DNA of 64,000 bases from Naegleria gruberi (taxonomy: Eukaryota). The translations under genes and the position numbers were made by a program. The stretch lies in assembly GCA_000004985.1 (NCBI GenBank), contig GG738900.1; one strand, written 5' to 3'. Shown in pieces: positions 2,339 to 64,000 of this stretch (position 1 is the first letter of the stretch; the number at the start of each line of letters is the position of its first letter). The notes beneath the pieces are model-generated. The model was not told the origin of the DNA, did no database searches, and worked only from the letters and a program-made list of their open reading frames with translations.

Positions 2339-3911
2339 ATGTTAACAAATCATCAGGCAAAAAGTTAGTTTTCTTCAATGTTGCGAATTTTTATAAGAAT
2401 AATAATAATTGCTTGTTTATGATCATTACCATCATCATGATGAACGAATACTGATACTAATAATAATAATAATAATAATTTAATTTTTATATTACTGAAT
2501 TGATTGATGAACAATTGATGAATAATTAATTATAGGGAAGGGAGAAAATAATTCCTTGTGCAACCGATCAAGATCGGGTCGTGAATTTGAAGGTTGTACA
2601 GTGAATCGTATCTTTGCAAGCTTTTCTCATACATTTTCCAGTACAAATCCAAAGTTTCAAGACAATTATACTCCTCTCGATCATAGTAAATATGAATTAT
2701 ACGAGTGGAAAATGTCGACCAATCAGCCACAAATTGTCATTAAGGAAGTTAGTACTGGAAAGGACTATATGACATTATTAACCATGGATGGTCGATTGTT
2801 GTTTATGGGACAAAATACATTTGCATTGGGTTCTGTATTGAGTGGAGAAAAGCTTCCTGATTATGTAACATGTCTGGAGGAGGCTTGTGTAAAGGTAGTC
2901 AGTGGGAGAGGTGATAATGGTGTAGGAGAAACCTTTTTAGAATTGGGTAAGAAGGAGACGAGGAATTTTCTTCATGTTGGAAGTGGAATGTACTTTATGG
3001 TAGTTCTTACGTCAGATTATAGATTGATTTCTTCTGGATCTAATGAGTGTGGACAGACAGGTGTTGGTCAAAATGCTAGTAGCATGGGAGGTTTTTCTGA
3101 ATGTGTTTTCAATAAGGATTTACAAGATTCAAAGAATGAAATATTGAGAGGAATTGTTAAAATTGCATGTGGATACCAACATTGTATGATATTGACTAGA
3201 GATGGAACAATGATTGGAACTGGGTGTTCCTACCAACGTCAATTAGGTCCAATTGAAAATGATATATCCTATGAATTTACAAAATTAGTATCTCCTGAAA
3301 CGACTACTCCAATAGTAGATATTCAATGTGGATACTTTAGTAGTTCATGTATTGACGCTAATGGAATGGTATATGTAGTTGGACAAGAGAGTTACACTCG
3401 ACTCGTCGCTGCAGAGAAATGGACCAAATTACAAACTTTTATTTATGATCCAGTTCAATACATGACAATGAGTTGTTCCAATTCATTCTTTCGAACAACA
3501 AGTGGATTAGTCTATCACAATTGGGGAAGTAATGATGACAATGAAAACAAACCATTTGAGAATTTGCAAAAATTAAGTGAGATACCTAATGTGGAATATA
3601 TATTTGGAAAGGAAAATTTCTTAGCTGTAACGGAATCTAAGGATATCTATCTCTCCACAAACTCTTCTTGTTCTGGAATTATTAAACCACCAACATCTGA
3701 TACTCGTTGGTTTGAATACAATGGCCTCAAACAACACATTCCTAAAAATGGAAGATATCAACTATTCATCGCCGATGCATTCAGCTTTTACATGTACTTT
3801 ATTCTATCCTCCAATAAGGAAGGTCACTTGAAGGATAATCTGAAAATTACACTCCAAAAAGGACAAACAGATTTTGAAAAGAATTATTTCATGGACATTA
3901 TCATCAAGTAG
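2339..3911 (+). CDS. RCC1-like repeat (beta-propeller) protein, paralogue A. Structure is join(2339..2363,2536..3911).
   Basis: RCC1-type repeats (IACGYQHCMILTRDG, GTGCSYQRQLG, SSGSNECGQTGVGQ). ATG at 2339, then a 25-nt first exon (MLTNHQAK), GTTAGT donor, AG acceptor at 2535 and a phase-1 junction. About 35% identity with the gene at 36230-37651 over the full length. Confidence 0.7.
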
Positions 3912-14116: not shown

Positions 14117-15313
14117 TTAGAATAAGAATGAAATTAAAACAAGCAAGCAAACAATTAGGAAAGAAGCTTGCTTAATATTGGAGGAACCACTTGTTTTAAC
14201 AGCTCTTCCACTGCATTGAGTTGCTTTTTGATTGACAACAGTCAATTCATTTCCATTTCTTGTCAAGATGAAAGGATTGTTAAAGATTATTGCACTCAAA
14301 GTGGTGTCAGAATTAATGTTTGAAACTTGAGCAGACATGCTTGTTGAAGAGCCACATTGACCATTCACTGGACCAGTCAAAAAGACAGTATTAGTGTTGG
14401 ACTTGGTGACAGAAACACTTCCTGTCAAACAACAACATGAATTGACATCGCATGTGTCTTGAACTTTCCATGTGCCAACCCAAGCAGATGTATAATCCAC
14501 TGGGTTAGATCCAGTTTGAACATCAACACCACGACTTTGTGAATAGGTATTTCCACCAGTAGTGTAGGTTGCTTTCAATTTAGCTGAAACTGAGGATGAA
14601 ACTGTGATAGAATTTGAGAATGTAGCAACACCATTAGAAGTTGTTGCAGTTGTTGAACCTCCCAGTGTACCACTTCCTTCCCAACTCAAAGAAATACTTT
14701 CTCCAGAAGTAGAAACTGTGTTTCCACTGGTGTCAAGTAATCTGACTGTTGTGGTGAAGGTTTGACCGCTGTTAACAGTTGTTGGAGCAGAAAGATCCAA
14801 ACCAACAACAGTACCTGTAGGAGTAGTACAACCATAAGAAACACTATACTTCAATGGACAACTCATGATTGCGTTGGTGCACTCAACAAAAAATTTGGCA
14901 TTTTGTTGATCTAATCTGTATGTACCAGCATAAACGCAAGTAACAGAGCTTGCTGAAGAAGGACCATTGTAGTAACTGAAAGGAAGACCTTGTTTATATT
15001 TTTCAAAATCAGCTTCAGAAACAGTGTAGTATTTGAAGGAGCTTCCATCAGTTGACTGAACATTAACGCTATAGGAAGATACAACTTGGCCGGTAGGACA
15101 GGTTAGAGAGAAACTAGTATAGGCATGGGCAGCAACACTTTGAGGACAAGTGCCACCCCCACATGTACATGCAATACATGAGCAGCTTTGTCTTGGGCTT
15201 CTGAACAAGTTTTGTTCCACAGCCTTGAGAGAAAGTTGAGAAGAAACTTGTTGAGCACAAGCCATTAATACAAAAAGCATAATAGCAGCTAGAATAGATT
15301 TGGTGTGAAACAT
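14117..15313 (-). CDS. Secreted, predicted GPI-anchored Ser/Thr/Gly-rich surface protein, paralogue A.
   Basis: Signal peptide MFHTKSILAAIMLFVLMACAQQ. Hydrophobic C-terminal tail ASFLIVCLLVLISFLF. Cys-rich C-terminal domain DYTSAWVGTWKVQDTCDVNSCCCLTGS... that is nearly identical to gene B. Repeats of TSG/GGS type. Confidence 0.7.
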   Translation of the reverse strand: MFHTKSILAAIMLFVLMACAQQVSSQLSLKAVEQNLFRSPRQSCSCIACTCGGGTCPQSVAAHAYTSFSLTCPTGQVVSSYSVNVQSTDGSSFKYYTVSEADFEKYKQGLPFSYYNGPSSASSVTCVYAGTYRLDQQNAKFFVECTNAIMSCPLKYSVSYGCTTPTGTVVGLDLSAPTTVNSGQTFTTTVRLLDTSGNTVSTSGESISLSWEGSGTLGGSTTATTSNGVATFSNSITVSSSVSAKLKATYTTGGNTYSQSRGVDVQTGSNPVDYTSAWVGTWKVQDTCDVNSCCCLTGSVSVTKSNTNTVFLTGPVNGQCGSSTSMSAQVSNINSDTTLSAIIFNNPFILTRNGNELTVVNQKATQCSGRAVKTSGSSNIKQASFLIVCLLVLISFLF

Positions 15314-15616: not shown

Positions 15617-16387
15617 TTAAACGAAGAGGAGAGAAATCACAACAAGCAAACAAATCAAGAAGGAAGACTTTGTGGTGAGAGAAGTATCACTTGTTTTAAC
15701 AGCTCTTCCACTGCATTGAGTTGCTCTTTGATTGACAACAGTCAATTCATTTCCATTTCTTGTCAAGACGAAAGGATTGTTAAAGATTATTGCACTCAAA
15801 GTAGTGTCAGAATTAATGTTTGAAACTTGAGCAGACATGCTTGTTGAAGAGCCGCATTGACCCTTCACTGGACCAGTCAAAAAGACAGCATTGGTATTTG
15901 ACTTGGTGACAGAAACACTTCCTGTCAAACAACAACATGAATTGACATCACATGTGTCTTGAACTTTCCATGTGCCAACCCAAGCAGATGTATAATCACC
16001 TGATGGATTATTAGAACCAATTTGGACATCAACACTGAGAGATTGTGAATAGGTTGATCCACCAGAAGTATAGGTTGCTTTCAACATGCCAGAAGTAGCA
16101 GCTGAAACTGTGATGGAAACTGAGAAGGCAGCAACACCATTAGAGAATGAAGCAACCGTTGAGCCACCCAAAGTACCACTTCCTTCCCAACTCAAAACAA
16201 CAGAACCAGAAGCTGCCATGGTGTTTCCACTAGAATCTAACATTTTGGCACTTGCAGAGAAAGTTTGGCCACTAGTAACAGTGTTTGGAACTGTCAAGCT
16301 CAAAAAAGCCAATGTGGCAGCTTGGCAGGTGCCAACAAAAGCGAGCAATGCGAGTATGACAACAAGGAATTGTTTAGTATTGAACAT
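15617..16387 (-). CDS. Secreted, predicted GPI-anchored Ser/Thr/Gly-rich surface protein, paralogue B (tandem duplicate of 14117-15313).
   Basis: Signal peptide MFNTKQFLVVILALLAFVGTCQA and hydrophobic C-terminus. The 3' ~330 nt are about 97% identical at DNA level to 14161-14470. Confidence 0.7.
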   Translation of the reverse strand: MFNTKQFLVVILALLAFVGTCQAATLAFLSLTVPNTVTSGQTFSASAKMLDSSGNTMAASGSVVLSWEGSGTLGGSTVASFSNGVAAFSVSITVSAATSGMLKATYTSGGSTYSQSLSVDVQIGSNNPSGDYTSAWVGTWKVQDTCDVNSCCCLTGSVSVTKSNTNAVFLTGPVKGQCGSSTSMSAQVSNINSDTTLSAIIFNNPFVLTRNGNELTVVNQRATQCSGRAVKTSDTSLTTKSSFLICLLVVISLLFV

Positions 16388-27326: not shown

Positions 27327-29181
27327 ATGCACCGTACACAGATCGAGCAACAATACGGCATTAGCTTTCATGTTCCTGAGCGGTATCAGGATTTGAATGT
27401 TATTGGTAAAGGTAAGAAGAAGAAGATTGGTAGATTGTATTTATGCTAATAATATCCGATCATATGATGATTTTTAAAATTTTGTATTTTTGAATAATCA
27501 ACTGATTTTATGTAATCTATTGTACATTGTTGAAACTATTTGATAATGGATATATTTCTTCATCATGATTAATCAAATTAACATTTCATTAATAACAACA
27601 ACAACAAAATCTATTACGATCATCATCAAATTTTATATTCTCTCCACTTCTTGTATTACTAATACAATAATAATTTTAGGATCATATGGTATTGTTTGTG
27701 CTGCAAAGGATACATTAACCAATTCCAAAGTAGCCATCAAGAAAGTCATCCGATGTTTTGATCATCATGTTTTTGCTGTTAGATTATTAAGAGAAGTTAA
27801 AATTCTTGGCTTTTTAAATCATCCAAACGTTATTGATTTAAAGCATGTACAATTACCATTCCCCGATAGAGATAATTTTACAGAATTATACATGTATACA
27901 GATTTGATGGATACGGACTTGAAAACTATTATACAATCATCTCAAGAATTGACTAATGACCATATCCAATTCTTCATGTATCAAATACTTAAAGCTGTAC
28001 ATTATATACATAGTGGAAATGTTATTCACAGAGATTTGGTAAGTGTTTTTCTTATTATTTGAATATTAAATGTTTATGAATAATAATATATCTTTAATAA
28101 CATCATCATAACAATATCATTTGATTAATAACAACAACAACAACAACAGAAACCTAGTAATATACTTATTAATAGTGATTGTAATATTAAAATTTGTGAT
28201 TTAGGATTGGCTAGAGGATACAATGATGGAACAAATGCTAACGAGTCAGTACTTAAAGGATTATTAAAAGGACAAAAACAAATGAAGCCAAAACTTACTG
28301 AATACGTAGTGACACGTTGGTATAGAGCTCCAGAGTTACTTCTTCAATCGAATGCCTATGGTAAACAAGTGGACGTGTGGAGTGTTGGATGTATATTTGC
28401 AGAATTGTTAGGAAGAGAACCACTGTTTAGAGGAAGTTCACATTATGATCAACTTGTTAAAATTTTTGATGTTATTGGAACTCCAAAGGATAAGACAGAC
28501 TTTGAAGGAATTGAATTGACAGATTCTAGTTACAATATCCTTCAACAGATTAAAGTGAAACCTAAACGAGATTTTACCAGCATTTTCCCTAATGCTACAA
28601 ATGATGCTGTTGATTTACTAGAAAAATTACTTTGTTTTTCACCAAAGCAAAGAATTAGTGCTTCTGAAGCTCTAGAACATCCATATTTTGAAGATATCCA
28701 TACATTTAATGATTATGATTTTGCTTCATCATCATTTGACTATAGTTTTGAAGCTGATGCAACTAGTATTCCAGCAATAAGGCACATGCTCTATGACGAA
28801 ATTGCTAGAAAGTATGACCACTCAAATGATAGAGAAGATGTCATGACTAGATATGAATTACAGACCTCTATGAAACCTCCAGTTTCAACTGCTGTACAGC
28901 AAAATAATGTACAACAAACCACAAACAATTATCAACCTCAATCTCAACATTACAATCATCAACAACAACAATATGATGAGGATGACGAGAGTGATGAAGG
29001 GGACGATGAGGAAGTAGAAGATATGGACTTTGTGGGCGATAAAAAGTCAGAACAACAACATCAACAACAATACCACCATCAAATGCATCACAGAAATCTC
29101 AGTAATGCCGGTGATGATAGCATCCTCACCACCGATGAAGCATCAGATTATATGGAAGAATCAGATTCTGATTTTCTTTAA
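27327..29181 (+). CDS. ERK-type MAP kinase with TEY activation loop. Structure is join(27327..27411,27680..28038,28150..29181). Closest resemblance is to Dictyostelium ErkA.
   Basis: PERYQDLNVIGKG/SYGIVCAAKD (glycine loop across intron 1), VAIKK, HRDL/KPSNILI (across intron 2), DLGLARG, LTEYVVTRWYRAPE, Gln/acidic C-terminal tail. Donors GTAAGA and GTAAGT. The track start 27234 is TTG; the true ATG is at 27327. Confidence 0.85.
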
Positions 29182-36229: not shown

Positions 36230-37651
36230 ATGGGCCAAAGTGGATCAAGAAAAGGTTTGTGTTTATTATTAGAAACTAAACTGATCATTCAATCGAAAAA
36301 CAGCAACAAAATCAACCAACTCCGGTTATAGACCATCACGTTCTGCTCCTTCACTTCTAGGAAGACAAGAAGTACTTTTAACTTTTGATACAGAATTTCA
36401 TTCCTTCTCTCAAGATAGTTTAGAACAAGTTTCTCAACTTGATCCGAAAGATGCTGCCACTCGAATTTTTAGATTTAAACATTTAACAGACAAAATGACG
36501 ATAAAATCAGTGAGTTCCGGAAAGAGCTTTGCTGCTCTCCTTGCAAATGATGGAAGGTAAGTGACAAATTTACAAAAAACTTTGAATTTTCGAATAACAA
36601 AAGATTATTTGTTTGTGGAAAGTGTCCATTCCCAACCACTGGACCAGAAACAACCTCCATAACCGATACAACCGATGAAAACCTTACACGTATTTCAATT
36701 GAACTTTCTAATAAGCAAGTTGTGGATAAATTTTCGAATATTGCTTGTGGAATGTATTTCATGATGGCTATGAGTGATGATCGTTCAAATATCTTCTCTG
36801 CAGGGCAGAATGAATGTGGTCAGAGAGCAATTGGTCGAGGAGGTTCTCTCAATTTTAAAGAATGTATTTTTGAGACCACTGAAATCAAAACCAAATTACT
36901 GAGTGGATTGGAAAAGATTTCATGTGGATATCAACATGCTATTGCCTATTCGAAAGATGGAAATCTGTATGGAACTGGATGTTCCTTTCAAAATCAATTG
37001 GGAACAATAGATAGTGGAATTTGTTACGAGTTTAGGAAAATATCGAGACCAAAAACTGATAATCAAATAATTGATGTACAAGCTGGATTTTTCTTTAGTG
37101 TTTGTTTGGATTCTGAAGGAATGGTCTATGTGACAGGAATAAGAGCTCACTCAAATATGATTGATGCTCAAGAATGGACGAAAATGAATACCTTCATCAA
37201 TCATCCAGTTTCTTCCATGTGGATTTCATGTTCCAACGCTTTCTTCCTAACTCAAGATGGACAAGTCTATCACAATTTGAATCTAACCTCAGAGATGGCC
37301 AATGATGAAAATCTCATTACTCTTCCAATACCTTCAGTCAAATCTATTTATGGTAAAGAATCTTACATGGCAGTCGATCAGTGGAATACAATCCATGTGT
37401 CAGCTTCGAATGGTTCTCAAGGAGTTTCAAACACATCGAAAAATTGGTTTGAACACGAAGGTATGCGAAGACTCATCGGAAGCAAGGATGAATTGCAAAT
37501 TCTTGATGCCTTTACTTTTTGTATTTTCATCAAATCATCCAATGAGGGAGTATTGAAGAATAACTTGTGTACTATTCTCAAAAAACAATTCAATAGTGAT
37601 TTGCATGAAAAGTCGTACTTGTATGATATCCGATTTACATCCATGCATTAA
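36230..37651 (+). CDS. RCC1-like repeat protein, paralogue B, with a predicted N-myristoylation start. Structure is join(36230..36254,36304..36556,36604..37651).
   Basis: The 25-nt first exon MGQSGSRK has Gly2 and Ser6, the N-myristoylation consensus. The phase-1 intron is at the same position as in paralogue A. A second GTAAGT intron lies at 36557-36603. RCC1 motifs ISCGYQHAIAYSKDG and GTGCSFQNQLG. Confidence 0.7.
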
Positions 37652-37857: not shown

Positions 37858-39690
37858 TCATTTTCCACCATCATCTCCTTCTTGTTCTTGTGTTAGAGTG
37901 ACACAACATTTGCACATCGGATCTCCATTACATTCTGCACATACCTCAACAGTACAATAGGGACACTTTTCTAAGTGAGTAAAGTAACTTCCGCAATTAG
38001 AACAACATTTCGTCTTCCTTGAGGTGGGAATAATGGAACCAACATAATGTGTTTTCTTCTTCTTGATGGGTATTGTGGATTGGGTAGTGTGTTGGTTTTG
38101 TTTGTTGTTACAGTTAATACATCTGCAAGCTGTAGAACACACCATCTTACTCTTCTTGCAAGCACAAGTATTTGAATCACACCCCAAACTGCAATCACAC
38201 GATAGTCCATAAGTGGCCTCGCTCTGGGGCATAGTTTGAGATAATTCCTTGAATTTCCTCTTGTTGTTAGCTTTTTGCTTTTTGGCTTCTTCAGTATGAT
38301 GATGTTTCAATACTTTAGATCTTTTTTCATTCAACTTATTCATATTGCTCTTCCATATTTCTTCTTCTGGAATATCCAATAAATCAAATAACCTTATAAT
38401 CCAAGTTTTACCTGCATTCTTATCCAAAACTGCTTGTTGAACACGAGTTCGGAAATATCTTGTCCCTTTGATATTCTTTGAGACATATTTAATTCTCATT
38501 CTGTGAAATGATTCACACGGATTTGATGAGTAATGGTGAAAAATTGCTTTTCCTTTCAGAACCAAGTTGTTTAACTTTTCTTTTAAATACTTAATCACAA
38601 ATGAATGGCGTTTTTCAGATAGCCATAGCTTATTGGGAGTTTTATGGTTTGGATCTTTAAACGGGCATCCCTGTGAGCAACCATCATGTTTGTTGCATAA
38701 ATGATTTGGAATGTTCTTTAACCAAGATTGTAATTCATCAAGAGAAGTTGCTTTAGAAATAAATTTGCTAACATATGCATTAATTCTAGGAGCCAATCTC
38801 TTCAATAATGCTTTGTCACCACGACGAAACAAACCTGATGGTTTCATTAATGATTTGTAGAGGTTTTTTCTAATATGATTAATATCCAAATAGGATGTTA
38901 CATTCGGATATTGATCAACAATATGTTTCAATGTACTACTATCCTCATCATGAATGACACATGAGATATTAATGTTATTGCTCTTCATATCTGAACAAAA
39001 CTGTTTCACTGACTCTCCTTCCATTGTCTTTGAACTTCCATGAAACATCCCAGTTTTGCAATTAATAATATCACTTGAATCTCTACAAGAACGACACTTC
39101 TCAATCACTTTGTAATAAACAATTTTAGAAGTAGTGGCATCAATAACAACAAGAGCACCATTTGATGATTCTCGCTTATGTCCCCATCCAAAGTCTATCA
39201 TTATTATTAATCCATTTTGTGATTTCTTTGCAGCTTCTTGCAAATCATCAGCTACCTGCTTTACGGAGAGTATTTCTATGGCAATAGAAAATGTTTCTAG
39301 GATATTGTAGAATGCAGATAATGAAAATGGTTTGATATTATTCAATAAAAGAAGTTGGCTGTATGTATCATAATTATGTCCAAGTATTAAACATGATAAA
39401 ACAAATCGGAAGGCTGTAAAATTGGGCATATTAGAAACTCCACCACTGTCCCATTTGATTTCCTTATGACAATTACTACATGTTATTGTTGCAATTAGTT
39501 GTCCACCAATAGTATGATGTGATGAAATTGTCAGTGATGATTTTGAGCAATTTGAGCAAGCAGCGTTCTCCAAAAGTAAGCTCAGATTGTTTGTATTACA
39601 TAAAAAAGCTTTTTTAAATTTAATTTTTTTTTTAGATTTTGATGACTTACAACAATCATTTGGTTGGAATTTTGCACTACTTCTCAACAC
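37858..39690 (-). CDS. Transposase main exon (610 aa). It has an N-terminal zinc ribbon, an IS1595/ISXO2-like DDE core and a C-terminal Cys-rich CxC-type domain.
   Basis: DDE-core blocks IIMIDFGWGHKRESSNGALVVIDATTSKIVYYKV and GMFHGSSKTMEGES. N-terminal CSNCS...CSNCHKEIKW. C-terminal SCDCSLGCDSNTCACKKSKMVCSTACRCINC and CSNCGSYFTHLEKCPYCTVEVCAECNG. Confidence 0.6.
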   Translation of the reverse strand: MLRSSAKFQPNDCCKSSKSKKKIKFKKAFLCNTNNLSLLLENAACSNCSKSSLTISSHHTIGGQLIATITCSNCHKEIKWDSGGVSNMPNFTAFRFVLSCLILGHNYDTYSQLLLLNNIKPFSLSAFYNILETFSIAIEILSVKQVADDLQEAAKKSQNGLIIMIDFGWGHKRESSNGALVVIDATTSKIVYYKVIEKCRSCRDSSDIINCKTGMFHGSSKTMEGESVKQFCSDMKSNNINISCVIHDEDSSTLKHIVDQYPNVTSYLDINHIRKNLYKSLMKPSGLFRRGDKALLKRLAPRINAYVSKFISKATSLDELQSWLKNIPNHLCNKHDGCSQGCPFKDPNHKTPNKLWLSEKRHSFVIKYLKEKLNNLVLKGKAIFHHYSSNPCESFHRMRIKYVSKNIKGTRYFRTRVQQAVLDKNAGKTWIIRLFDLLDIPEEEIWKSNMNKLNEKRSKVLKHHHTEEAKKQKANNKRKFKELSQTMPQSEATYGLSCDCSLGCDSNTCACKKSKMVCSTACRCINCNNKQNQHTTQSTIPIKKKKTHYVGSIIPTSRKTKCCSNCGSYFTHLEKCPYCTVEVCAECNGDPMCKCCVTLTQEQEGDDGGK

Positions 39691-48126: not shown

Positions 48127-49334
48127 ATGAAACCAACATCACAATTGGCGATTCTTTTAGTTTGTGCCCTCCTTGTTTCCTTATCTCATGCAGCTGATGA
48201 CTGTTTAGATAATAGCTATGCCATTCCAACAGCAAGCTTAATCACAGTAAATGGCATTCCTTCAACTGTGGATGAAGGTTTCTCCATCCTCTGGAACACT
48301 GGTCTTAAAATCAAATCACCATACTTTGTCAATATTTACTATGGATTGAACAATGGCAATTTCTTCTTGTTGAAGAATTGTAAATCCACTGCTAACAATG
48401 GTAATGCTTATTGTGGAACTAATAATTTCTTGGCCTACATTAGACACTCTTCAAATGGACACAATAAGAGAGTCATTCATCAAGTTTATTCAAATGGTAC
48501 TTTGGCCGAAAGGATTGGTTTGGAATCAGATGATTACAACACTGTTTCTAAAGGTTGGTATGTTAAGGCTGATAACTGGACTGATGTTTATCAATTCGCT
48601 TCAGGTGGTTCTGGTAGAACATTCTGCAAATCATTCAGTAATGGTGTTATTGCTGTTGACAGAGATGCTAGAGAACCATGTTCAGCATGTTTGGAAAATT
48701 CATACTCTGTACCAGCTTCTAGAGTTTTGCAATGCCTGAATTGAATCAATTTTCAGCAATTACAACTAAGGCTGGTTTGGTTGCTCCTATTCAAAAGATT
48801 TTGAGCTTGTTGAAACAAGTCAATGTTGGTTACGCCATTAACATGTACATCGGTTTTGATAATAATGATTTCTATGGAGTTTTGAACTGTGGAGTTGATG
48901 TCAACAAGAATATTGAAGTCTGTACTAAAGCTGGTTCTGCATATGTTGCCTTGATTAGAAATCAAGCTGTTCTCCAATCAACTGCTAGAAAGACCTTTGC
49001 TTTGACTGCTGATGGAGTCATGTCTGAAACTGCTTTAGATATTACCTCTGCAACCACTGAATATGCAACAACTGGTAGAGCATGGTATACCAATGGCAAT
49101 GGTTTCTCTGATTACTATCTCTTTGCTGCTCAAGGTGTCTATGGAAGAACTTATTCATTGAGTTTCATGGGTGGTGTTGCTGGTTCTGATACTTTGAATG
49201 AACCATGTAAGAGAGTTTCATGTGATAATATCATTACCCCTTCTACTTCTGTAAAGGTTGTTAATGGTGTTAATTCATTGAAATCAACTTTAATTGTTGC
49301 TTTGATTTTGGCCATTATTGTTTTGCTTTTTTAA
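48127..49334 (+). CDS. Secreted, predicted GPI-anchored protein made of two homologous ~190-aa Cys-containing repeats. Structure is join(48127..48723,48771..49334). Family not recognised.
   Basis: Signal peptide MKPTSQLAILLVCALLVSLSHA. Repeat starts CLDNSYAIPTAS and CLENSYSVPASR. Hydrophobic C-terminus STLIVALILAIIVLLF. A 47-nt GTTTTG..CTAAG intron (phase 0) is inferred from the repeat alignment. Confidence 0.5.
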
Positions 49335-49622: not shown

Positions 49623-51626
49623 TTATTGAATGAAACATTTTTTCTTTACATCATCAATTTCCAAATCAGCACCGCCACTCTTTGATTGTTTCTTCTTCAA
49701 TTTCTTCCTATATTTTTCCCTCTTTTTTTTATATTCCTCAACTTTTTTATAGTATGAATCTGGTGGCCATTTGTTTTCAGTAACATGTTTCAGATTTTCA
49801 CCTGTTAAAAGTTCCCATTCCCTTCTTGCTTTCATTGGACCATAATTTGTAGAGATGAAATGGAGACAAAAGTTGGGCAATTAATTGGCTTCATAAGTTT
49901 GAGCTAGTAATAGTAGACCTATAGTGTCAATGTCAGCATTTTCAATTCCTTGAGCAACTGATTTGTCAATATTTTTCGAGATGAAAATTTCACACAATGA
50001 GATTGCCATATTCGTTGGCCAAACTCAACAATCCAACAGCATTTCTTTCATTGATGGTAGAGTGAGCAGAGTATAGATATTCGAATAGGGCATGGAATTC
50101 ACTTATTCTATTCTCGTTCTCACCAATTTCACCACTCAAATCTACTTGCCTTGATGAGTGCTCTACGAAATTAGCTTCAAACATTGTTCTGAATACATCA
50201 CAATTAGCAGAGAGGAATAGCTTGTGTCCATGGAAATTCTTGGAAGAATCAGTTGTGGAAAAGACAATTTCGACATCGGAGTGAGTTTTCTTATCAAAGT
50301 ACTTTTTCTTAATTTCACTACCCAATAAATCATTAAGATATGTTTCAATGCTTTCATTGAACACATCTTCCTCTACTATCTGGTAATTACTGACTATATT
50401 GTTAGTGTATTCACATTCAAGGATGGTAGATGCAGTCTTGACCTTATTGAGAAATTGATCTTTTTTACACCTTTTCCGCATTGTTTCCGATCCTCCATAA
50501 TATTGAATTTCTAATAGGGATTTGAAAGCCCTATGATGAATAGTGTTGGAGAGTCTGAATTTCAATATATTTGGCTCATTCTCATCAATAGAGACAGATG
50601 AGAAACCACTCACTCTACCTCCATTAATTTTGGCACTCAACTTTTCAAATGCTTCATGTGAATAGCTATTCATTCCAGCATCTCTAGAAACCAATACTTC
50701 ATCGAATAATTTTCCAATAACTTTGGAGGGAACACAAGCCAACACCAATGAATGGGCCTTAATTTCCACATCAATGTCCTTCTTGGAATTGTAAATTACA
50801 AACTTGGTATCACAGCAAAAATCACTATCCAAAAGGTTTTTAAAACCCTTGCCATAATTTGAGCTTTCCACATAAATCCTAGGAGCTTTTCTAGCTGGAG
50901 GCACTATAGGAGGAGTTGGTTCAATATCTTCAGGGTTTCCAATCACTACCTTCTTTCTTCCTTTTTTTGAAGATTTGGACACGTAAATTGTTTCTGAAAT
51001 TGCCAATTTGAAGAGTTTATCAATATTGTACATGGCTCTAGAGCTTGTAATAATGCATAGTGAAGCAAGTGAATTCTGTAACTTTTGCTCAATCATTTCC
51101 TTAGTGACTATTGAGTCACAATCAGCATTTGAGACAAGGTCACTCTTACACCCAACCAAAATGATCTATTTGAATAGAAAGGGAATATTCAATGAATTCA
51201 TTGGCATGGAATGGTCAACTTACTGGAATATCAGGACAGTGATGAATCAATTCTGGAATCCATTTTGATTCGACATTCTCAAAGGAAATACGATCGACCA
51301 TTGAAAAACTTAATCATTACGTTAGAGGAAGAATTCAACCACCGAAAAACATACCAAACAAAGAAGACATCAGTTCTCAGATATGAAAGAGCTCTCAATC
51401 TATCATAATCTAGTCAATTGTCAAATTGTCACAATTTTTATAATTCCAACATACCAGTATCCCACAATCCAACATTATAATTTCTATTTCCATATATCAC
51501 ATTAACACTATCAAAAACTGTTGGAGCATAATCTTCGGGAAATGAATTTGTGGTGGAGGCAATCAAAAGACAACTCTTTCCGACTTTGCTATCACCAACA
51601 ACTACCAATTTCAAGCTGTTCTCCAT
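49623..51626 (-). CDS. RhoBTB-type protein with an atypical Rho GTPase domain, two BTB/POZ domains, a polybasic tail and a CAAX box (CFIQ). It has at least five exons; resolved exons are 51438..51626, about 51372-51406, about 51164-51246, and 49990 to about 51106, with a C-terminal exon inside 49623..49880. Comparable to Dictyostelium RacA.
   Basis: [21 protein letters not shown]...LWDTG / [10 protein letters not shown] / [35 protein letters not shown] / [13 protein letters not shown] domains at [11 protein letters not shown]...[13 protein letters not shown] and HSDVEIVF...[22 protein letters not shown]-terminus [23 protein letters not shown]...CFIQ*. The G3 motif lacks AGQE. Confidence 0.7.
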
Positions 51627-53619
51627 TATTTACAGGTTGATGTGTTTGTTATTTTTTTTGTGGTTTTTAAATCTCTTGATATCAAACATAAAAACGCGGT
51701 ATAAAGTTAAAAATAGATTCTTATAGATGTGAAAATAGCTCACAATCGAAAGGATGAACAAAGCTTATTACAAAAGTGGAAGTGAAAGTGGTATTTATCA
51801 TGAATTTTATCACAGAAATCACTCTTGAAACATGAATTGTACTAGAATGTTCGAATTGATCAATTTAAGGTGGCACTGTAGCTCGCAATAAAAGACGAAG
51901 TAAACTGTTAATGTTTGAGAAGCTCTCCCACGGAATGCTACCACTCTGGAGATACAATTCGAAGAGAGTATATCCTATCAGATGTATATATTACAATCCT
52001 GCATTACATTTCTTTACAAATCGCTAGATATTGAATAAATAATAAAATCCTCTGTTGATCGAACTTGTAATCAGAAATGTGACGGTAAAAAAATTAAAGT
52101 TTCAACCCTCTTGCACGCAACAGCAACAAAATAAAACCCAGAGAAGAACAACATATGTTCTAGAGATGTTGTTCTATTTGTTCCTGCATTACATTGTTGT
52201 GATGTTGTTATGCGCCAATATTAATCACACAGTAGCCATTCCAATTTTAATTCTTGGCAGTGAAGGTCCATTCCAATTTTCACCACTTGCCTTTTTTGAA
52301 AAATTAAAGGACTTGGAAATATTTCTTAACAATATTGGGTCAACATCAGGTATATCATGCCTGTGTTGATTCTTGGTGTAATTTCACATCTATTAACTCC
52401 AAGAATTTCACCACATCATCTCATCATCATTTAAATAATATTATTAATAGTAATTTTTGGAATTCAATCCTTCATCATGATTTGGCAATAATTTTATTAT
52501 TTGGAAAAATTCAAGTTGGTACATCATCATCGGAACAACTACCAACCATCATTGTTATTTATCATCATTATAATAGTAATATTTGTGGAAATAAATCTGA
52601 TAATAGTATTATTTTAGTGAAATATTTTCACTAAAATCATCATCACTGCCAGATTTATATGATAATTTGGAAAACTTTCAATCTAGTATTGTTCAGCATG
52701 GTCGATTCCATCAGGTAAAATCACTTCCGAACGTTTTCCTATTGTTTATCATGATGATAGGTACATGTATATTTTCAACATGTACATGGACCATATCTCA
52801 ACATGTACTTCACCAACTTGGAAAATGTCTTTCATCACTACTATTCAAATACATAATAAACAATATATTTATCAGATTTTCATCATTTTGTGTTTTTGCC
52901 AACTTCGGGTTATTCATGGTCCCAATCATGATTCATGCCAAAAGTACAGTCAATCTTCTTGAAACATTAATAAACTTTTATTAGTACAATATTGTAGATG
53001 TACCATATCAATTATTTCGTCTTGTTTCGTTGAAATCATGAAGGGTTTGGAAACGTGTTGTTTTGATTTGTTTCTTCTGTGGCTCCATGGTCTTTATGAT
53101 CTGATATTGGGTTATTAAGCGCCGTTTGGGTATTTTGTTGGTTTTTTTAGTAAAGTTTTAAAAAAAGTATATAGTTCTTATCTAGTTATCGAGTTGTGGT
53201 GTAAATGTGTTGTTTTCAAGCTATTCGAAAGTAGTAACGATTTCGATATTCCGTTACTTTGCGTCACTTTGCGGACGGACTTACATTCAATCAATTTGGT
53301 TGTCATTCATATTGATGCGTAGAATTTTTGAGAGTATTTTTGAATGTACGTTATTTTTATCTACGCATGAATGAAAAGTACAACAATGATCAAGAGGAAT
53401 TGAGTCATGAGTATGATACTTTCTCAGATTGTTCTACGCATCAAGAGTATTCGATTCAGGATTCTATTCATATATGATATTTGTAATACATATATTGAAT
53501 TGGATGAGATGGAGTGCCATCTTGTTTTAAAAGTTGAGTCGACATTAAGGTATTCAGTAAATTGATACCACATGACTAATTAGAGTGATTATATGTCATT
53601 ATATCAATTTCTTTGAAAA

Positions 53620-53744
53620 CAGACTTGCTTCTGGACCTTTCAGATTTCTAGCCACTTTGACAGATCACCAAGTACTATCTACTGGATGCATTTCTTGAAA
53701 TAAAAGTATTTAATTTGAATAAAGTCCACTTTATTTGAGATGGT
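53620..53744 (+). repeat. Subtelomeric junction element, copy 1 of about 125 bp, directly preceding the first (GGGTTT)n array.
   Basis: About 85% identical to 57790-57915 (TTCTGGACCYTTCAGATTTCYAGCCA...CTATCTACTGGATGYATTTCTTGAAAT...ACTTTATTTGAGATG). Confidence 0.6.
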
Positions 53745-54105
53745 GTTGGGTTTGGGTTTGGGTTTGGGTTTGGGTTTGGGTTTGGGTTTGGGTTTGGGTT
53801 TGGGTTTGGGTTTGGTTTTGGGTTTGGGTTTGGGTTTGGGTTTGGGTTTGGGTTTGGGTTTGGGTTTGGGTTTGGGTTTGGGTTTGGGTTTGGGTTTGGG
53901 TTTGGGTTTGGGTTTGGGTTTGGGTTTGGGTTTGGGTTTGGGTTTGGGTTTGGGTTTGGGTTTGGGTTTGGGTTTGGGTTTGGGTTGGGTTTGGGTTTGG
54001 GTTTGGGTTTGGGTTTGGGTTTGGGTTTGGGTTTGGGTTTGGGTTTGGGTTTGGGTTTGGGTTTGGGTTTGGGTTTGGGTTTGGGTTTGGGTTTGGGTTT
54101 GGGTT
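53745..54105 (+). repeat. (GGGTTT)n telomere-like hexamer array of about 60 units with a few GGTTTT/GGGTT variants. It abuts an N gap.
   Basis: Perfect tandem hexamers starting right after a unique junction (...TTTGAGATGGTGTT|GGGTTTGGG). The six-frame ORFs here ([12 protein letters not shown]) are artifacts. Confidence 0.8.
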
Positions 54106-57004
54106 NNNNNNNNNNNNNNNNNNNNNNNNNNNNNNNNNNNNNNNNNNNNNNNNNNNNNNNNNNNNNNNNNNNNNNNNNNNNNNNNNNNNNNNNNNNNNNN
54201 NNNNNNNNNNNNNNNNNNNNNNNNNNNNNNNNNNNNNNNNNNNNNNNNNNNNNNNNNNNNNNNNNNNNNNNNNNNNNNNNNNNNNNNNNNNNNNNNNNNN
54301 NNNNNNNNNNNNNNNNNNNNNNNNNNNNNNNNNNNNNNNNNNNNNNNNNNNNNNNNNNNNNNNNNNNNNNNNNNNNNNNNNNNNNNNNNNNNNNNNNNNN
54401 NNNNNNNNNNNNNNNNNNNNNNNNNNNNNNNNNNNNNNNNNNNNNNNNNNNNNNNNNNNNNNNNNNNNNNNNNNNNNNNNNNNNNNNNNNNNNNNNNNNN
54501 NNNNNNNNNNNNNNNNNNNNNNNNNNNNNNNNNNNNNNNNNNNNNNNNNNNNNNNNNNNNNNNNNNNNNNNNNNNNNNNNNNNNNNNNNNNNNNNNNNNN
54601 NNNNNNNNNNNNNNNNNNNNNNNNNNNNNNNNNNNNNNNNNNNNNNNNNNNNNNNNNNNNNNNNNNNNNNNNNNNNNNNNNNNNNNNNNNNNNNNNNNNN
54701 NNNNNNNNNNNNNNNNNNNNNNNNNNNNNNNNNNNNNNNNNNNNNNNNNNNNNNNNNNNNNNNNNNNNNNNNNNNNNNNNNNNNNNNNNNNNNNNNNNNN
54801 NNNNNNNNNNNNNNNNNNNNNNNNNNNNNNNNNNNNNNNNNNNNNNNNNNNNNNNNNNNNNNNNNNNNNNNNNNNNNNNNNNNNNNNNNNNNNNNNNNNN
54901 NNNNNNNNNNNNNNNNNNNNNNNNNNNNNNNNNNNNNNNNNNNNNNNNNNNNNNNNNNNNNNNNNNNNNNNNNNNNNNNNNNNNNNNNNNNNNNNNNNNN
55001 NNNNNNNNNNNNNNNNNNNNNNNNNNNNNNNNNNNNNNNNNNNNNNNNNNNNNNNNNNNNNNNNNNNNNNNNNNNNNNNNNNNNNNNNNNNNNNNNNNNN
55101 NNNNNNNNNNNNNNNNNNNNNNNNNNNNNNNNNNNNNNNNNNNNNNNNNNNNNNNNNNNNNNNNNNNNNNNNNNNNNNNNNNNNNNNNNNNNNNNNNNNN
55201 NNNNNNNNNNNNNNNNNNNNNNNNNNNNNNNNNNNNNNNNNNNNNNNNNNNNNNNNNNNNNNNNNNNNNNNNNNNNNNNNNNNNNNNNNNNNNNNNNNNN
55301 NNNNNNNNNNNNNNNNNNNNNNNNNNNNNNNNNNNNNNNNNNNNNNNNNNNNNNNNNNNNNNNNNNNNNNNNNNNNNNNNNNNNNNNNNNNNNNNNNNNN
55401 NNNNNNNNNNNNNNNNNNNNNNNNNNNNNNNNNNNNNNNNNNNNNNNNNNNNNNNNNNNNNNNNNNNNNNNNNNNNNNNNNNNNNNNNNNNNNNNNNNNN
55501 NNNNNNNNNNNNNNNNNNNNNNNNNNNNNNNNNNNNNNNNNNNNNNNNNNNNNNNNNNNNNNNNNNNNNNNNNNNNNNNNNNNNNNNNNNNNNNNNNNNN
55601 NNNNNNNNNNNNNNNNNNNNNNNNNNNNNNNNNNNNNNNNNNNNNNNNNNNNNNNNNNNNNNNNNNNNNNNNNNNNNNNNNNNNNNNNNNNNNNNNNNNN
55701 NNNNNNNNNNNNNNNNNNNNNNNNNNNNNNNNNNNNNNNNNNNNNNNNNNNNNNNNNNNNNNNNNNNNNNNNNNNNNNNNNNNNNNNNNNNNNNNNNNNN
55801 NNNNNNNNNNNNNNNNNNNNNNNNNNNNNNNNNNNNNNNNNNNNNNNNNNNNNNNNNNNNNNNNNNNNNNNNNNNNNNNNNNNNNNNNNNNNNNNNNNNN
55901 NNNNNNNNNNNNNNNNNNNNNNNNNNNNNNNNNNNNNNNNNNNNNNNNNNNNNNNNNNNNNNNNNNNNNNNNNNNNNNNNNNNNNNNNNNNNNNNNNNNN
56001 NNNNNNNNNNNNNNNNNNNNNNNNNNNNNNNNNNNNNNNNNNNNNNNNNNNNNNNNNNNNNNNNNNNNNNNNNNNNNNNNNNNNNNNNNNNNNNNNNNNN
56101 NNNNNNNNNNNNNNNNNNNNNNNNNNNNNNNNNNNNNNNNNNNNNNNNNNNNNNNNNNNNNNNNNNNNNNNNNNNNNNNNNNNNNNNNNNNNNNNNNNNN
56201 NNNNNNNNNNNNNNNNNNNNNNNNNNNNNNNNNNNNNNNNNNNNNNNNNNNNNNNNNNNNNNNNNNNNNNNNNNNNNNNNNNNNNNNNNNNNNNNNNNNN
56301 NNNNNNNNNNNNNNNNNNNNNNNNNNNNNNNNNNNNNNNNNNNNNNNNNNNNNNNNNNNNNNNNNNNNNNNNNNNNNNNNNNNNNNNNNNNNNNNNNNNN
56401 NNNNNNNNNNNNNNNNNNNNNNNNNNNNNNNNNNNNNNNNNNNNNNNNNNNNNNNNNNNNNNNNNNNNNNNNNNNNNNNNNNNNNNNNNNNNNNNNNNNN
56501 NNNNNNNNNNNNNNNNNNNNNNNNNNNNNNNNNNNNNNNNNNNNNNNNNNNNNNNNNNNNNNNNNNNNNNNNNNNNNNNNNNNNNNNNNNNNNNNNNNNN
56601 NNNNNNNNNNNNNNNNNNNNNNNNNNNNNNNNNNNNNNNNNNNNNNNNNNNNNNNNNNNNNNNNNNNNNNNNNNNNNNNNNNNNNNNNNNNNNNNNNNNN
56701 NNNNNNNNNNNNNNNNNNNNNNNNNNNNNNNNNNNNNNNNNNNNNNNNNNNNNNNNNNNNNNNNNNNNNNNNNNNNNNNNNNNNNNNNNNNNNNNNNNNN
56801 NNNNNNNNNNNNNNNNNNNNNNNNNNNNNNNNNNNNNNNNNNNNNNNNNNNNNNNNNNNNNNNNNNNNNNNNNNNNNNNNNNNNNNNNNNNNNNNNNNNN
56901 NNNNNNNNNNNNNNNNNNNNNNNNNNNNNNNNNNNNNNNNNNNNNNNNNNNNNNNNNNNNNNNNNNNNNNNNNNNNNNNNNNNNNNNNNNNNNNNNNNNN
57001 NNNN
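54106..57004. other. Assembly gap (N run, 2899 nt).
   Basis: Continuous N. The ORFs translated across it are artifacts. Confidence 0.95.
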
Positions 57005-59703: not shown

Positions 59704-62700
59704 NNNNNNNNNNNNNNNNNNNNNNNNNNNNNNNNNNNNNNNNNNNNNNNNNNNNNNNNNNNNNNNNNNNNNNNNNNNNNNNNNNNNNNNNNNNNNNNNN
59801 NNNNNNNNNNNNNNNNNNNNNNNNNNNNNNNNNNNNNNNNNNNNNNNNNNNNNNNNNNNNNNNNNNNNNNNNNNNNNNNNNNNNNNNNNNNNNNNNNNNN
59901 NNNNNNNNNNNNNNNNNNNNNNNNNNNNNNNNNNNNNNNNNNNNNNNNNNNNNNNNNNNNNNNNNNNNNNNNNNNNNNNNNNNNNNNNNNNNNNNNNNNN
60001 NNNNNNNNNNNNNNNNNNNNNNNNNNNNNNNNNNNNNNNNNNNNNNNNNNNNNNNNNNNNNNNNNNNNNNNNNNNNNNNNNNNNNNNNNNNNNNNNNNNN
60101 NNNNNNNNNNNNNNNNNNNNNNNNNNNNNNNNNNNNNNNNNNNNNNNNNNNNNNNNNNNNNNNNNNNNNNNNNNNNNNNNNNNNNNNNNNNNNNNNNNNN
60201 NNNNNNNNNNNNNNNNNNNNNNNNNNNNNNNNNNNNNNNNNNNNNNNNNNNNNNNNNNNNNNNNNNNNNNNNNNNNNNNNNNNNNNNNNNNNNNNNNNNN
60301 NNNNNNNNNNNNNNNNNNNNNNNNNNNNNNNNNNNNNNNNNNNNNNNNNNNNNNNNNNNNNNNNNNNNNNNNNNNNNNNNNNNNNNNNNNNNNNNNNNNN
60401 NNNNNNNNNNNNNNNNNNNNNNNNNNNNNNNNNNNNNNNNNNNNNNNNNNNNNNNNNNNNNNNNNNNNNNNNNNNNNNNNNNNNNNNNNNNNNNNNNNNN
60501 NNNNNNNNNNNNNNNNNNNNNNNNNNNNNNNNNNNNNNNNNNNNNNNNNNNNNNNNNNNNNNNNNNNNNNNNNNNNNNNNNNNNNNNNNNNNNNNNNNNN
60601 NNNNNNNNNNNNNNNNNNNNNNNNNNNNNNNNNNNNNNNNNNNNNNNNNNNNNNNNNNNNNNNNNNNNNNNNNNNNNNNNNNNNNNNNNNNNNNNNNNNN
60701 NNNNNNNNNNNNNNNNNNNNNNNNNNNNNNNNNNNNNNNNNNNNNNNNNNNNNNNNNNNNNNNNNNNNNNNNNNNNNNNNNNNNNNNNNNNNNNNNNNNN
60801 NNNNNNNNNNNNNNNNNNNNNNNNNNNNNNNNNNNNNNNNNNNNNNNNNNNNNNNNNNNNNNNNNNNNNNNNNNNNNNNNNNNNNNNNNNNNNNNNNNNN
60901 NNNNNNNNNNNNNNNNNNNNNNNNNNNNNNNNNNNNNNNNNNNNNNNNNNNNNNNNNNNNNNNNNNNNNNNNNNNNNNNNNNNNNNNNNNNNNNNNNNNN
61001 NNNNNNNNNNNNNNNNNNNNNNNNNNNNNNNNNNNNNNNNNNNNNNNNNNNNNNNNNNNNNNNNNNNNNNNNNNNNNNNNNNNNNNNNNNNNNNNNNNNN
61101 NNNNNNNNNNNNNNNNNNNNNNNNNNNNNNNNNNNNNNNNNNNNNNNNNNNNNNNNNNNNNNNNNNNNNNNNNNNNNNNNNNNNNNNNNNNNNNNNNNNN
61201 NNNNNNNNNNNNNNNNNNNNNNNNNNNNNNNNNNNNNNNNNNNNNNNNNNNNNNNNNNNNNNNNNNNNNNNNNNNNNNNNNNNNNNNNNNNNNNNNNNNN
61301 NNNNNNNNNNNNNNNNNNNNNNNNNNNNNNNNNNNNNNNNNNNNNNNNNNNNNNNNNNNNNNNNNNNNNNNNNNNNNNNNNNNNNNNNNNNNNNNNNNNN
61401 NNNNNNNNNNNNNNNNNNNNNNNNNNNNNNNNNNNNNNNNNNNNNNNNNNNNNNNNNNNNNNNNNNNNNNNNNNNNNNNNNNNNNNNNNNNNNNNNNNNN
61501 NNNNNNNNNNNNNNNNNNNNNNNNNNNNNNNNNNNNNNNNNNNNNNNNNNNNNNNNNNNNNNNNNNNNNNNNNNNNNNNNNNNNNNNNNNNNNNNNNNNN
61601 NNNNNNNNNNNNNNNNNNNNNNNNNNNNNNNNNNNNNNNNNNNNNNNNNNNNNNNNNNNNNNNNNNNNNNNNNNNNNNNNNNNNNNNNNNNNNNNNNNNN
61701 NNNNNNNNNNNNNNNNNNNNNNNNNNNNNNNNNNNNNNNNNNNNNNNNNNNNNNNNNNNNNNNNNNNNNNNNNNNNNNNNNNNNNNNNNNNNNNNNNNNN
61801 NNNNNNNNNNNNNNNNNNNNNNNNNNNNNNNNNNNNNNNNNNNNNNNNNNNNNNNNNNNNNNNNNNNNNNNNNNNNNNNNNNNNNNNNNNNNNNNNNNNN
61901 NNNNNNNNNNNNNNNNNNNNNNNNNNNNNNNNNNNNNNNNNNNNNNNNNNNNNNNNNNNNNNNNNNNNNNNNNNNNNNNNNNNNNNNNNNNNNNNNNNNN
62001 NNNNNNNNNNNNNNNNNNNNNNNNNNNNNNNNNNNNNNNNNNNNNNNNNNNNNNNNNNNNNNNNNNNNNNNNNNNNNNNNNNNNNNNNNNNNNNNNNNNN
62101 NNNNNNNNNNNNNNNNNNNNNNNNNNNNNNNNNNNNNNNNNNNNNNNNNNNNNNNNNNNNNNNNNNNNNNNNNNNNNNNNNNNNNNNNNNNNNNNNNNNN
62201 NNNNNNNNNNNNNNNNNNNNNNNNNNNNNNNNNNNNNNNNNNNNNNNNNNNNNNNNNNNNNNNNNNNNNNNNNNNNNNNNNNNNNNNNNNNNNNNNNNNN
62301 NNNNNNNNNNNNNNNNNNNNNNNNNNNNNNNNNNNNNNNNNNNNNNNNNNNNNNNNNNNNNNNNNNNNNNNNNNNNNNNNNNNNNNNNNNNNNNNNNNNN
62401 NNNNNNNNNNNNNNNNNNNNNNNNNNNNNNNNNNNNNNNNNNNNNNNNNNNNNNNNNNNNNNNNNNNNNNNNNNNNNNNNNNNNNNNNNNNNNNNNNNNN
62501 NNNNNNNNNNNNNNNNNNNNNNNNNNNNNNNNNNNNNNNNNNNNNNNNNNNNNNNNNNNNNNNNNNNNNNNNNNNNNNNNNNNNNNNNNNNNNNNNNNNN
62601 NNNNNNNNNNNNNNNNNNNNNNNNNNNNNNNNNNNNNNNNNNNNNNNNNNNNNNNNNNNNNNNNNNNNNNNNNNNNNNNNNNNNNNNNNNNNNNNNNNNN

Positions 62701-63095
62701 NNNNNNNNNNNNNNNNNNNNNNNNNNNNNNNNNNNNNNNNNNNNNNNNNNNNNNNNNNNNNNNNNNNNNNNNNNNNNNNNNNNNNNNNNNNNNNNNNNNN
62801 NNNNNNNNNNNNNNNNNNNNNNNNNNNNNNNNNNNNNNNNNNNNNNNNNNNNNNNNNNNNNNNNNNNNNNNNNNNNNNNNNNNNNNNNNNNNNNNNNNNN
62901 NNNNNNNNNNNNNNNNNNNNNNNNNNNNNNNNNNNNNNNNNNNNNNNNNNNNNNNNNNNNNNNNNNNNNNNNNNNNNNNNNNNNNNNNNNNNNNNNNNNN
63001 NNNNNNNNNNNNNNNNNNNNNNNNNNNNNNNNNNNNNNNNNNNNNNNNNNNNNNNNNNNNNNNNNNNNNNNNNNNNNNNNNNNNNNNNNNNNNNN
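59704..63095. other. Assembly gap (N run, 3392 nt). A further 50-nt gap lies at 58219-58268.
   Basis: Continuous N. Confidence 0.95.
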
Positions 63096-63574
63096 CTTTT
63101 ATATCTACAGACTTGAACTTTTGAAATTTGATATGAAAGTGATTATAGATGTTGTTAATGATGATATATATACTATATAATCTCATTAAAGGATTTGAAA
63201 TTATCATTCTTCCTATAGTTTCATTTTACAAATTTTAATCTGCCACTATTTACAAAGTTAATATTTTATAAATTGAAAAACTAAATATAACACGTTGTTC
63301 TACTCATCATTTCCAATCGAATGATATAAAATTTAATGATATTTGAATAAGTTTATAATTTTGGGCTAGGGTTTGAAGGTTGGGTTTAGAAGAGTGTTGG
63401 GTTTGGTACCTGTCATTATCTCTCTGGTTTGGGATCCGCACATGCTCAGATCTTATAGCTTATCAATGTGATGTATAATAGTCTGATCTACATGTGGTAA
63501 AAACACGAAGGTGTAATATTCTATATTTATTGAGATAATCAATAAAGTTTAGTATTTGTCAGAAAAACTTGCCT

Positions 63575-64000
63575 TGGGTTGGGTTTGGGTTTGGGTTTGG
63601 GTTTGGGTTTGGGTTTGGGTTTGGGTTTGGGTTTGGGTTTGGGTTTGGGTTTGGGTTTGGGTTTGGGTTTGGGTTTGGGTTTGGGTTTGGGTTTGGGTTT
63701 GGGTTTGGGTTTGGGTTTGGGTTTGGGTTTGGGTTTGGGTTTGGGTTTGGGTTTGGGTTTGGGTTTGGGTTTGGGTTTGGGTTTGGGTTTGGGTTTGGGT
63801 TTGGGTTTGGGTTTGGGTTTGGGTTTGGGTTTGGGTTTGGGTTTGGGTTTGGGTTTGGGTTTGGGTTTGGGTTTGGGTTTGGGTTTGGGTTTGGGTTTGG
63901 GTTTGGGTTTGGGTTTGGGTTTGGGTTTGGGTTTGGGTTTGGTTTGGGTTTGGGTTTGGGTTTGGGTTTGGGTTTGGGTTTGGGTTTGGGTTTGGGTTTG
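63575..64000 (+). repeat. (GGGTTT)n telomere-like array of about 70 units running to the window end, G-rich strand 5'->3' toward the end. A degenerate copy lies at 63362-63410.
   Basis: Perfect hexamer repeats with one GGTTT variant near 63940. Same orientation as the array at 53745. Confidence 0.8.

Follow-up and report, generated by a model that had tools for sequence, protein, structure and literature searches.

A RacA-like RhoBTB gene of Naegleria gruberi NEG-M is very likely a decaying duplicate that lacks its switch II AGQE codons and has its CAAX box out of frame

The systems closest to the gene described here, a RhoBTB-type gene of Naegleria gruberi strain NEG-M, include some from Dictyostelium and from animals. 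Dictyostelium discoideum RacA, the founding RhoBTB outside the metazoans, is built, like this gene, of a Rho domain, a proline-rich linker, two BTB domains and a conserved C-terminal region; all of its G boxes are intact, and it has no CAAX motif (PMC8305917). In human RhoBTB3, the GTPase domain is degenerate and a conserved CAAX box stands at the C terminus (PMC8305917). The protein works as an ATPase at the Golgi and as a CUL3 adaptor (PMC3812982), and its CAAX is not needed for targeting to the Golgi (Lu and Pfeffer 2013, PMC3812982). For Naegleria, Herman et al. 2021 (BMC Biol 19:142, PMC8296547) curated the Ras superfamily of N. gruberi and N. fowleri by hand, and Additional file 4 of that study notes RhoBTB-type proteins in the genus. 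Its Table S8 gives four N. gruberi RhoBTB genes, among them XP_002672175.1, entered as 'RhoBTB' with BTB and 'putative pseudogene: yes', XP_002670692.1, with orthologues outside Heterolobosea, and the divergent XP_002678166.1 and XP_002670302.1. The first of these is our subject. It lies at 51626-49623 on the minus strand of a 64,000-nucleotide stretch of contig GG738900.1 (GenBank assembly GCA_000004985.1), called the window below. Its pseudogene status is therefore already known, on record since 2021; comparison with intact relatives makes it very likely that the locus is an unprocessed duplicate of a RacA-like RhoBTB gene, decaying to a pseudogene in NEG-M.

The gene equals XP_002672175.1 (EFC39431.1, D2VV44), annotated as 'rho family small GTPase', and our spliced 495-amino-acid (aa) model is identical to that protein; exact matches to NEG-M proteins were obtained for 8 of 10 open reading frames (ORFs) in the window, which belongs to a 312-kb scaffold. 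Two intact relatives served for comparison. The first is a sister-strain allele on contig k127_63002 of ENA metagenome ERZ929261, called L001 here, which has about 97% DNA identity to window positions 51638-47768 and is collinear through the downstream gene. Its spliced sequence is open over 625 aa up to a terminal CFIQ and contains the AGQE codons, an 11-nucleotide (nt) segment and a CAA codon, all missing from the window copy. The two alleles are the same in what we call A-type markers, namely the P-loop GDSKVGKS, a two-residue switch I deletion and an 18-residue marker stretch. The idea that L001 is an assembly chimera between paralogues was rejected, as A-type residues stand 15 to 25 codons from each intact site, nearer than the assembler's k of 127. 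The second relative, paralogue B (XP_002670692.1, D2VZ88; P0069), is a 633-aa protein encoded on a different NEG-M scaffold, of 236 kb; it falls in the same 90% cluster and has about 90% amino-acid identity to the window copy. The two are alike in architecture, in the C-terminal ...KKKCFIQ and, where the protein model of B is comparable, in exon structure. Paralogue B differs in having a canonical P-loop (GDGAVGKS), an intact switch I (DNYSANV), DTAGQE, an unbroken 633-aa ORF and an in-frame CAAX. With the orthologues of N. lovaniensis and N. fowleri, both N. gruberi copies share only about 55 to 59% identity, so the duplication postdates the split of N. gruberi from these species. A closely similar intact paralogue on another scaffold, together with three retained introns, is what an unprocessed pseudogene is expected to have. 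No further close Naegleria RhoBTB locus was found in a scan of Joint Genome Institute (JGI) metagenome contigs, in which matches of ordinary Rac genes to WDTAGQED drowned out everything else.

As the preliminary description of this DNA had proposed, the gene has several exons and encodes a Rho domain. There are four exons between the ATG at 51626 and the old stop TAA at 49625-49623, separated by introns of 45, 46 and 58 nt with GTATGT or GTAAGT donors and AG acceptors. Exon 1 (51455-51626) carries the ATG (51626-51624), the P-loop GDSKVGKS, a switch I without Asn39-Tyr40 (Rac1 numbering) and ...GLWDT, and its last base is the first of a split Asp codon. Intron 1 (51410-51454, GTATGT...CTAG) is kept in L001 as a 49-nt intron. 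Exon 2 (51355-51409) starts within the split Asp codon, carries the substitutions Pro69>Ala, Pro73>Leu and Gly74>Arg, and ends in a split Cys codon. Intron 2 (51309-51354, GTATGT...TAAG) is strongly divergent from its L001 counterpart and lies inside a patch of high divergence, which is described below. Exon 3 (51224-51308) encodes 28 residues, and intron 3 (51166-51223, GTAAGT...ATAG) has the same sequence in L001. Exon 4 as annotated (49990-51165) holds the remaining Rho domain, the proline-rich linker, a split BTB1 and most of BTB2.

The Rho domain matches Pfam Ras (PF00071) at 2.9e-29 over residues 6-162, and its closest solved structures are Rac1/2/3 and Cdc42, the best being Rac1 at 1.8e-42. 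Two BTB domains had been proposed. BTB2 is well supported (Pfam BTB, 7.4e-17, residues 392-491), with BTB model positions 95-110 absent, and BTB1 gives only a weak partial Pfam match in the window copy (18.9 bits versus a cutoff of 20.5), though it lines up with RhoBTB homologues over its whole extent, and two BTB stretches are seen in the paralogue. Indeed, the window copy can be aligned end to end with RhoBTB homologues, the PPxxPPAxKAP linker included. An N-terminal Rho/Rac-type GTPase domain and, after a proline-rich linker, tandem BTB domains of which the first is split by an insert are the hallmarks of RhoBTB/RacA-like proteins, and this architecture and the full-length alignment bear out the family assignment that had been made from sequence. 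Matches to RacA-like proteins have E values below 1e-90; the only RhoBTB1/2-type matches in the hit list, to Musca RhoBTB2, are far weaker (1.4e-22, 23% identity). The G1 to G5 boxes, which a canonical RacA-like GTPase is expected to keep intact, are degraded here: AGQE is gone, the P-loop is GDSKVGKS, Asn39-Tyr40 are gone and CKSD stands as the G4 box.

The preliminary description reported AGQE, with its catalytic Gln, as missing at an exon junction; the four residues are indeed absent, at the boundary of exon 1. The exon 1/2 splice joins ...GLWDT to DYDRLR... through the split Asp codon (G|AT). The G3 box, first read as LWDTG/DYDRLR, is properly LWDT|DYDRLR, the G being the first base of that codon. 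Against Rac1, the gap covers exactly Ala59-Gly60-Gln61-Glu62, and another gap of two residues corresponds to Asn39-Tyr40 in switch I. Alignment to L001 places a 12-nt in-frame deletion of GCTGGTCAAGAA (Ala-Gly-Gln-Glu) at the end of exon 1, between 51456 and 51455, its position ambiguous by 1 nt owing to a shared G; L001 has tgggatactGCTGGTCAAGAAGgtatgt at the site where the window has tgggatactg|gtatgt. It had been suggested that an alternative acceptor might restore AGQE. However, no GCNGGNCARGAR string, which would encode AGQE, was found in the gene with one mismatch allowed, and the few GT/AG sites near intron 1, checked by eye, all run into an immediate stop, so that neither an alternative donor nor an alternative acceptor can bring the residues back. 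The loss of AGQE is a genuine deletion from the DNA and no splice artefact. Next to it, RALSYLRTD in exon 2 replaces the RPLSYPGTD shared by L001, the paralogue and N. lovaniensis; the N. fowleri model has no such exon 2 segment and stands outside this comparison. Distant homologues keep both prolines and have Gln instead of Gly at position 74.

The second lesion lies at the C-terminal join, which the preliminary description had flagged as a weak point and which is indeed broken. Relative to L001, 11 nt (AAGTCTGGATT) are absent at 50005/50004. The deletion destroys ...EYG-KSGLI-SLCEIF... and shifts the frame, so that the upstream ORF stops at a premature TGA (49992-49990) with a 495-aa product ending ...GNLIV, and the CAAX tail is detached from it. 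The former C-terminal coding region (49626-50003), comprising the BACK-like RhoBTB C-terminal domain, a Lys/Arg-rich stretch (49754-49638, 17 Lys/Arg in 39 residues) and CFIQ (49637-49626), is thus out of frame with BTB2. In the old frame, moreover, a CAA codon in L001, encoding a Gln that is found in the paralogue and in every aligned homologue, has become TAA at 49883-49881, and the adjacent codon has changed from Ala to Pro (49877). The polybasic tail and CFIQ therefore exist in the DNA, as had been claimed, but they lie 3' of two stops; the proposal of a GTPase-dead Rho that prenylation would still bring to membranes does not survive, the CAAX being cut off by a frameshift and a nonsense codon. 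A reassigned stop code of the ciliate or diplomonad type, with TAA read as Gln, came to mind because of the TAA opposite Gln; it was rejected, given standard-code ORFs of up to 2,853 aa in the window, the species being N. gruberi and the TAA being a CAA>TAA mutation.

We consider it extremely improbable that a long intron near 49993-49825 joins the upstream frame to CFIQ and yields a farnesylated RhoBTB of about 560 aa without AGQE. When candidate introns were enumerated, 48 single GT..AG combinations gave an ORF ending in CFIQ, the shortest using an intron of 169 nt. All were rejected on length, donor quality and lost conserved coding sequence: these introns span 169 to 400 nt, 3 to 8 times the length of the gene's real introns, their donors are GTGAAA, GTTTGG and GTTGAG instead of GTATGT or GTAAGT, and they remove at least 56 codons from a region conserved from Naegleria to molluscs. 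The first 59 codons of the former C-terminal region are identical to paralogue B at 54 of 59 positions and to L001 at 57 of 59. In the intact L001 allele and in the paralogue this stretch is coding without interruption, and the official model has no such intron.

The frameshift, the nonsense codon and the deletion of catalytic residues are absent from L001, the paralogue and the outgroups. Fourteen amino-acid differences between the window copy and L001 can be polarised, and in each of them the derived state is that of the window copy (14:0, p=1e-4). At sites conserved in Naegleria, changes on the A lineage exceed those on the B lineage both for the NEG-M copy (19:5, p=0.007) and for L001 (13:4, p=0.049). 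These comparisons are consistent with the following course of decay. The working gene is XP_002670692.1, with a canonical Rac-like GTPase, tandem BTB domains, the conserved C-terminal domain and a polybasic, farnesylation-type CFIQ tail. The A copy had diverged faster beforehand, with a P-loop changed to GDSKVGKS, the loss of Asn39-Tyr40 and changes at conserved linker residues. In NEG-M it further shows the 12-nt loss of Ala59-Gly60-Gln61-Glu62 together with three substitutions in an otherwise conserved 14-residue stretch, the 11-nt deletion, after which translation ends at residue 495, within or just past BTB2, and the CAA>TAA change in the old frame. With these lesions, any product would be without the residues for GTP switching and hydrolysis, and also without its C-terminal domain, polybasic stretch and CAAX; it cannot be a prenylated RhoBTB. 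It is from these lesions that we infer a loss of function.

The rates of change between the two strains are uneven along the gene. In control genes from the same strains, the proportion of synonymous differences (pS) is 0.019 to 0.027 and that of nonsynonymous differences (pN) is 0 to 0.0044; an adjacent P450 is 100% identical in protein. Overall, the RhoBTB copy has pS 0.037 and pN 0.011 against L001. Exons 2 and 3 reach pS 0.18 and pN 0.077, and intron 2 is likewise highly divergent; codons 341-430 have pS 0.078 and pN 0.023. These two patches, at window positions 51456-51271 and 50572-50328, stand out against a genome baseline pS of about 0.02. Codons 106-340, by comparison, have pS 0.027 and pN 0, and neither they nor codons 341-430 carry changes of any other kind. 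In the last 191 codons pS is 0 and pN 0.004, from the nonsense codon and one missense change, in addition to the 11-nt deletion; given this stretch without synonymous differences, the C-terminal lesions appear to be recent. Relaxed selection cannot lift pS about eightfold, so one of the alleles must have exchanged patches with a diverged paralogue, and the patchiness suggests non-allelic gene conversion between RhoBTB paralogues. The simplest reading would be that B converted the L001 lineage, as L001, unlike the window copy, equals paralogue B at every amino acid of the exon 2-3 and codon 341-430 patches. If so, the AGQE deletion may be older than the split between the strains.

Another reading gives the A copy a function. 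The A-type paralogue would be a neofunctionalised, atypical RhoBTB in wild N. gruberi (Gly12>Ser/Ala13>Lys, Asn39-Tyr40 lost, CAAX kept), intact in the sister strain, with its switch II periodically overwritten or repaired by gene conversion from the canonical paralogue, and only NEG-M would have lost the gene, recently; alternatively, NEG-M would still make the 495-aa form, without switch and tail, as a BTB adaptor or decoy. We regard this as fairly unlikely.

Several observations weigh against decay to a pseudogene. The overall pN/pS against L001 is 0.29 rather than about 1, and codons 106-340 hold no amino-acid change at all, so that constraint seems to have acted on most of the ORF up to very recent times. 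In part, the 14:0 polarity could reflect conversion of L001 by the paralogue, not decay in NEG-M. A 495-aa ORF with good splice sites persists and could still be translated. Finally, the lesions rest on one Sanger-era draft assembly, and NEG-M may hold an intact second allele that was collapsed out of it.

The persisting ORF is the starting point for a truncated but useful protein, in which a switch-defective Rho and BTB domains without the C-terminal domain or CAAX would be expressed and retain some function, for instance that of a BTB/Cullin-3 adaptor independent of GTP, or a dominant-negative effect on the intact paralogue by dimerisation through BTB. The frame is open from the ATG to the TGA at 49992-49990 across three well-formed introns, and the lack of nonsynonymous change in codons 106-340 would fit such a protein. 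There are also precedents: RhoBTBs with a non-functional GTPase exist, including RhoBTB3 without most of the GTPase domain (PMC8305917), and the G3 box is naturally degenerate in two further N. gruberi RhoBTBs. However, the end of BTB2 (Pfam positions 95-110) and the whole C-terminal region have been lost, the latter conserved in every aligned homologue that covers it, and three further substitutions fall on highly conserved Rho residues. The sister strain is free of the lesions and so offers no case of a conserved truncated form, and published curation has the gene as a putative pseudogene (PMC8296547). We judge this explanation unlikely.

It is very unlikely, in our estimation, that the lesions arose as mistakes in the draft assembly, or belong to one dead haplotype beside an intact NEG-M allele, with a working A-type RhoBTB that has AGQE and CAAX as in L001. 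The scaffold is indeed a gapped draft, with 6,341 N across three gaps in the window; the adjacent gene also has a frameshifting 4-nt deletion relative to L001, which could mean a locally poor region; and L001 itself demonstrates that an intact A-type allele exists in nature. Against this, the deletions remove 12, 11 and 4 nt and lie away from homopolymers; these, together with a transition, are atypical of sequencing error, and the substitutions clustered around the 12-nt deletion indicate real divergence, not random error. Neighbouring genes are intact, one of them identical in protein to the sister strain, and the 90% cluster contains no intact A-type protein from NEG-M. The longest intact standard-code ORF in the window has 2,853 aa and other long intact ORFs are present; given these, the assembly is not indel-prone in general. 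Under the reading we prefer, a duplicate decaying in NEG-M, XP_002672175.1/D2VV44 is best treated as a pseudogene or truncated allele in counts and alignments of Naegleria Rho GTPases, and its missing AGQE should not be taken for a natural 'GTPase-dead' design. Beyond such annotation hygiene the significance is small.

A CAAX box in which X is Gln or Met indicates farnesylation, from the specificity of the prenyltransferases. Fifty full-length homologues were retrieved; DTAGQE is present in 43 of the 50, and a terminal CAAX-type box (CxxM or CxxQ) in 40, including proteins from molluscs, both bivalves and gastropods, from annelids, amphioxus and a sponge, and from echinoderms, a sea star among them. 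The metazoan proteins, named 'rho-related protein racA-like', have 35 to 39% identity over 92 to 98% of the length and the same architecture, with DTAGQE and a farnesylation-type CAAX (CVVM, CSIM, CKVQ and others); their genes are intact, unlike the window copy. With such genes in metazoans, the CAAX of Naegleria is not unusual. The exceptions include dictyostelid proteins, which keep DTAGQE and have no CAAX, and Musca RhoBTB2 (DTFGD, no CAAX). One dictyostelid homologue (P0019) aligns end to end at 37 to 39% identity and ends in FGKKLFGK, in contrast to the CAAX with which the Naegleria clade ends. Judged from these sequences, members of the RacA-like clade commonly combine a canonical GTPase with a farnesylation-type CAAX, in Naegleria, many invertebrates and other protists, and the loss of the CAAX in Dictyostelium RacA and RhoBTB1/2 accordingly looks derived. 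The preliminary description had considered a degenerate GTPase with a CAAX to be a distinctive configuration. It is not, as human RhoBTB3 is a known example (PMC8305917) and 40 of the 50 homologues, metazoans among them, have the box. The window gene, for its part, appears to be a recently broken RacA-like copy and no relative of RhoBTB3, whose own sequence lay outside the comparison. One review states that RhoBTB has not been identified in basal metazoans such as sponges (PMC8305917); our sponge match, P0034 of Oopsacas minuta with 597 aa and a terminal CLMM, seems to contradict this.

Upstream of the gene, homology between the strains ends 13 nt 5' of the RhoBTB ATG (L001 1-604 versus window 51639-53700). 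The L001 flank holds the N-terminal half of a MAPK/CDK-like kinase, ending HRDLKP|GTAAAT. The window flank has about 2 kb without an ORF over 105 aa, and the only kinase match in the window is a 33%-identical paralogue at 27667-28038. One of the two strains is rearranged at the expected site of the RhoBTB promoter. Downstream, a second frameshifted gene directly adjoins the RhoBTB pseudogene. The NEG-M annotation divides this neighbour (48127-49334, plus strand) between two proteins, EFC39374 (205 aa) and EFC39375 (163 aa), and in L001 it forms a single 403-aa ORF (P0072); the window lacks 4 nt (CAGT) near 48730, which splits the gene. Both halves have low pN/pS, 0.09 and 0.15.

Elsewhere in the window, long simple-sequence arrays at 53678-54105 and 63542-64000, whose six-frame translations are two-residue repeats (PK, NP, TQ and others), stand next to two of the three N gaps. 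The first array ends at the start of the 54106-57004 gap; the second begins about 450 nt past the 59704-63095 gap and reaches the end of the window. These arrays are probably the cause of the assembly breaks at those gaps. Two minus-strand genes at 14117-15313 and 15617-16387 are tandem paralogues, rich in Ser/Thr and secreted or membrane-anchored in appearance; their long C-terminal halves are nearly identical, and both cross-match the sister-strain contig L083 with about 85% identity. A 523-aa ORF at 37858-39429 (minus strand) has a Cys-rich C terminus and no obvious cellular role, and by appearance is a transposase-like candidate. Two similar plus-strand ORFs at 2712-3911 and 36752-37651 look like putative RCC1-type repeat proteins and are seemingly paralogues dispersed within the 64 kb.

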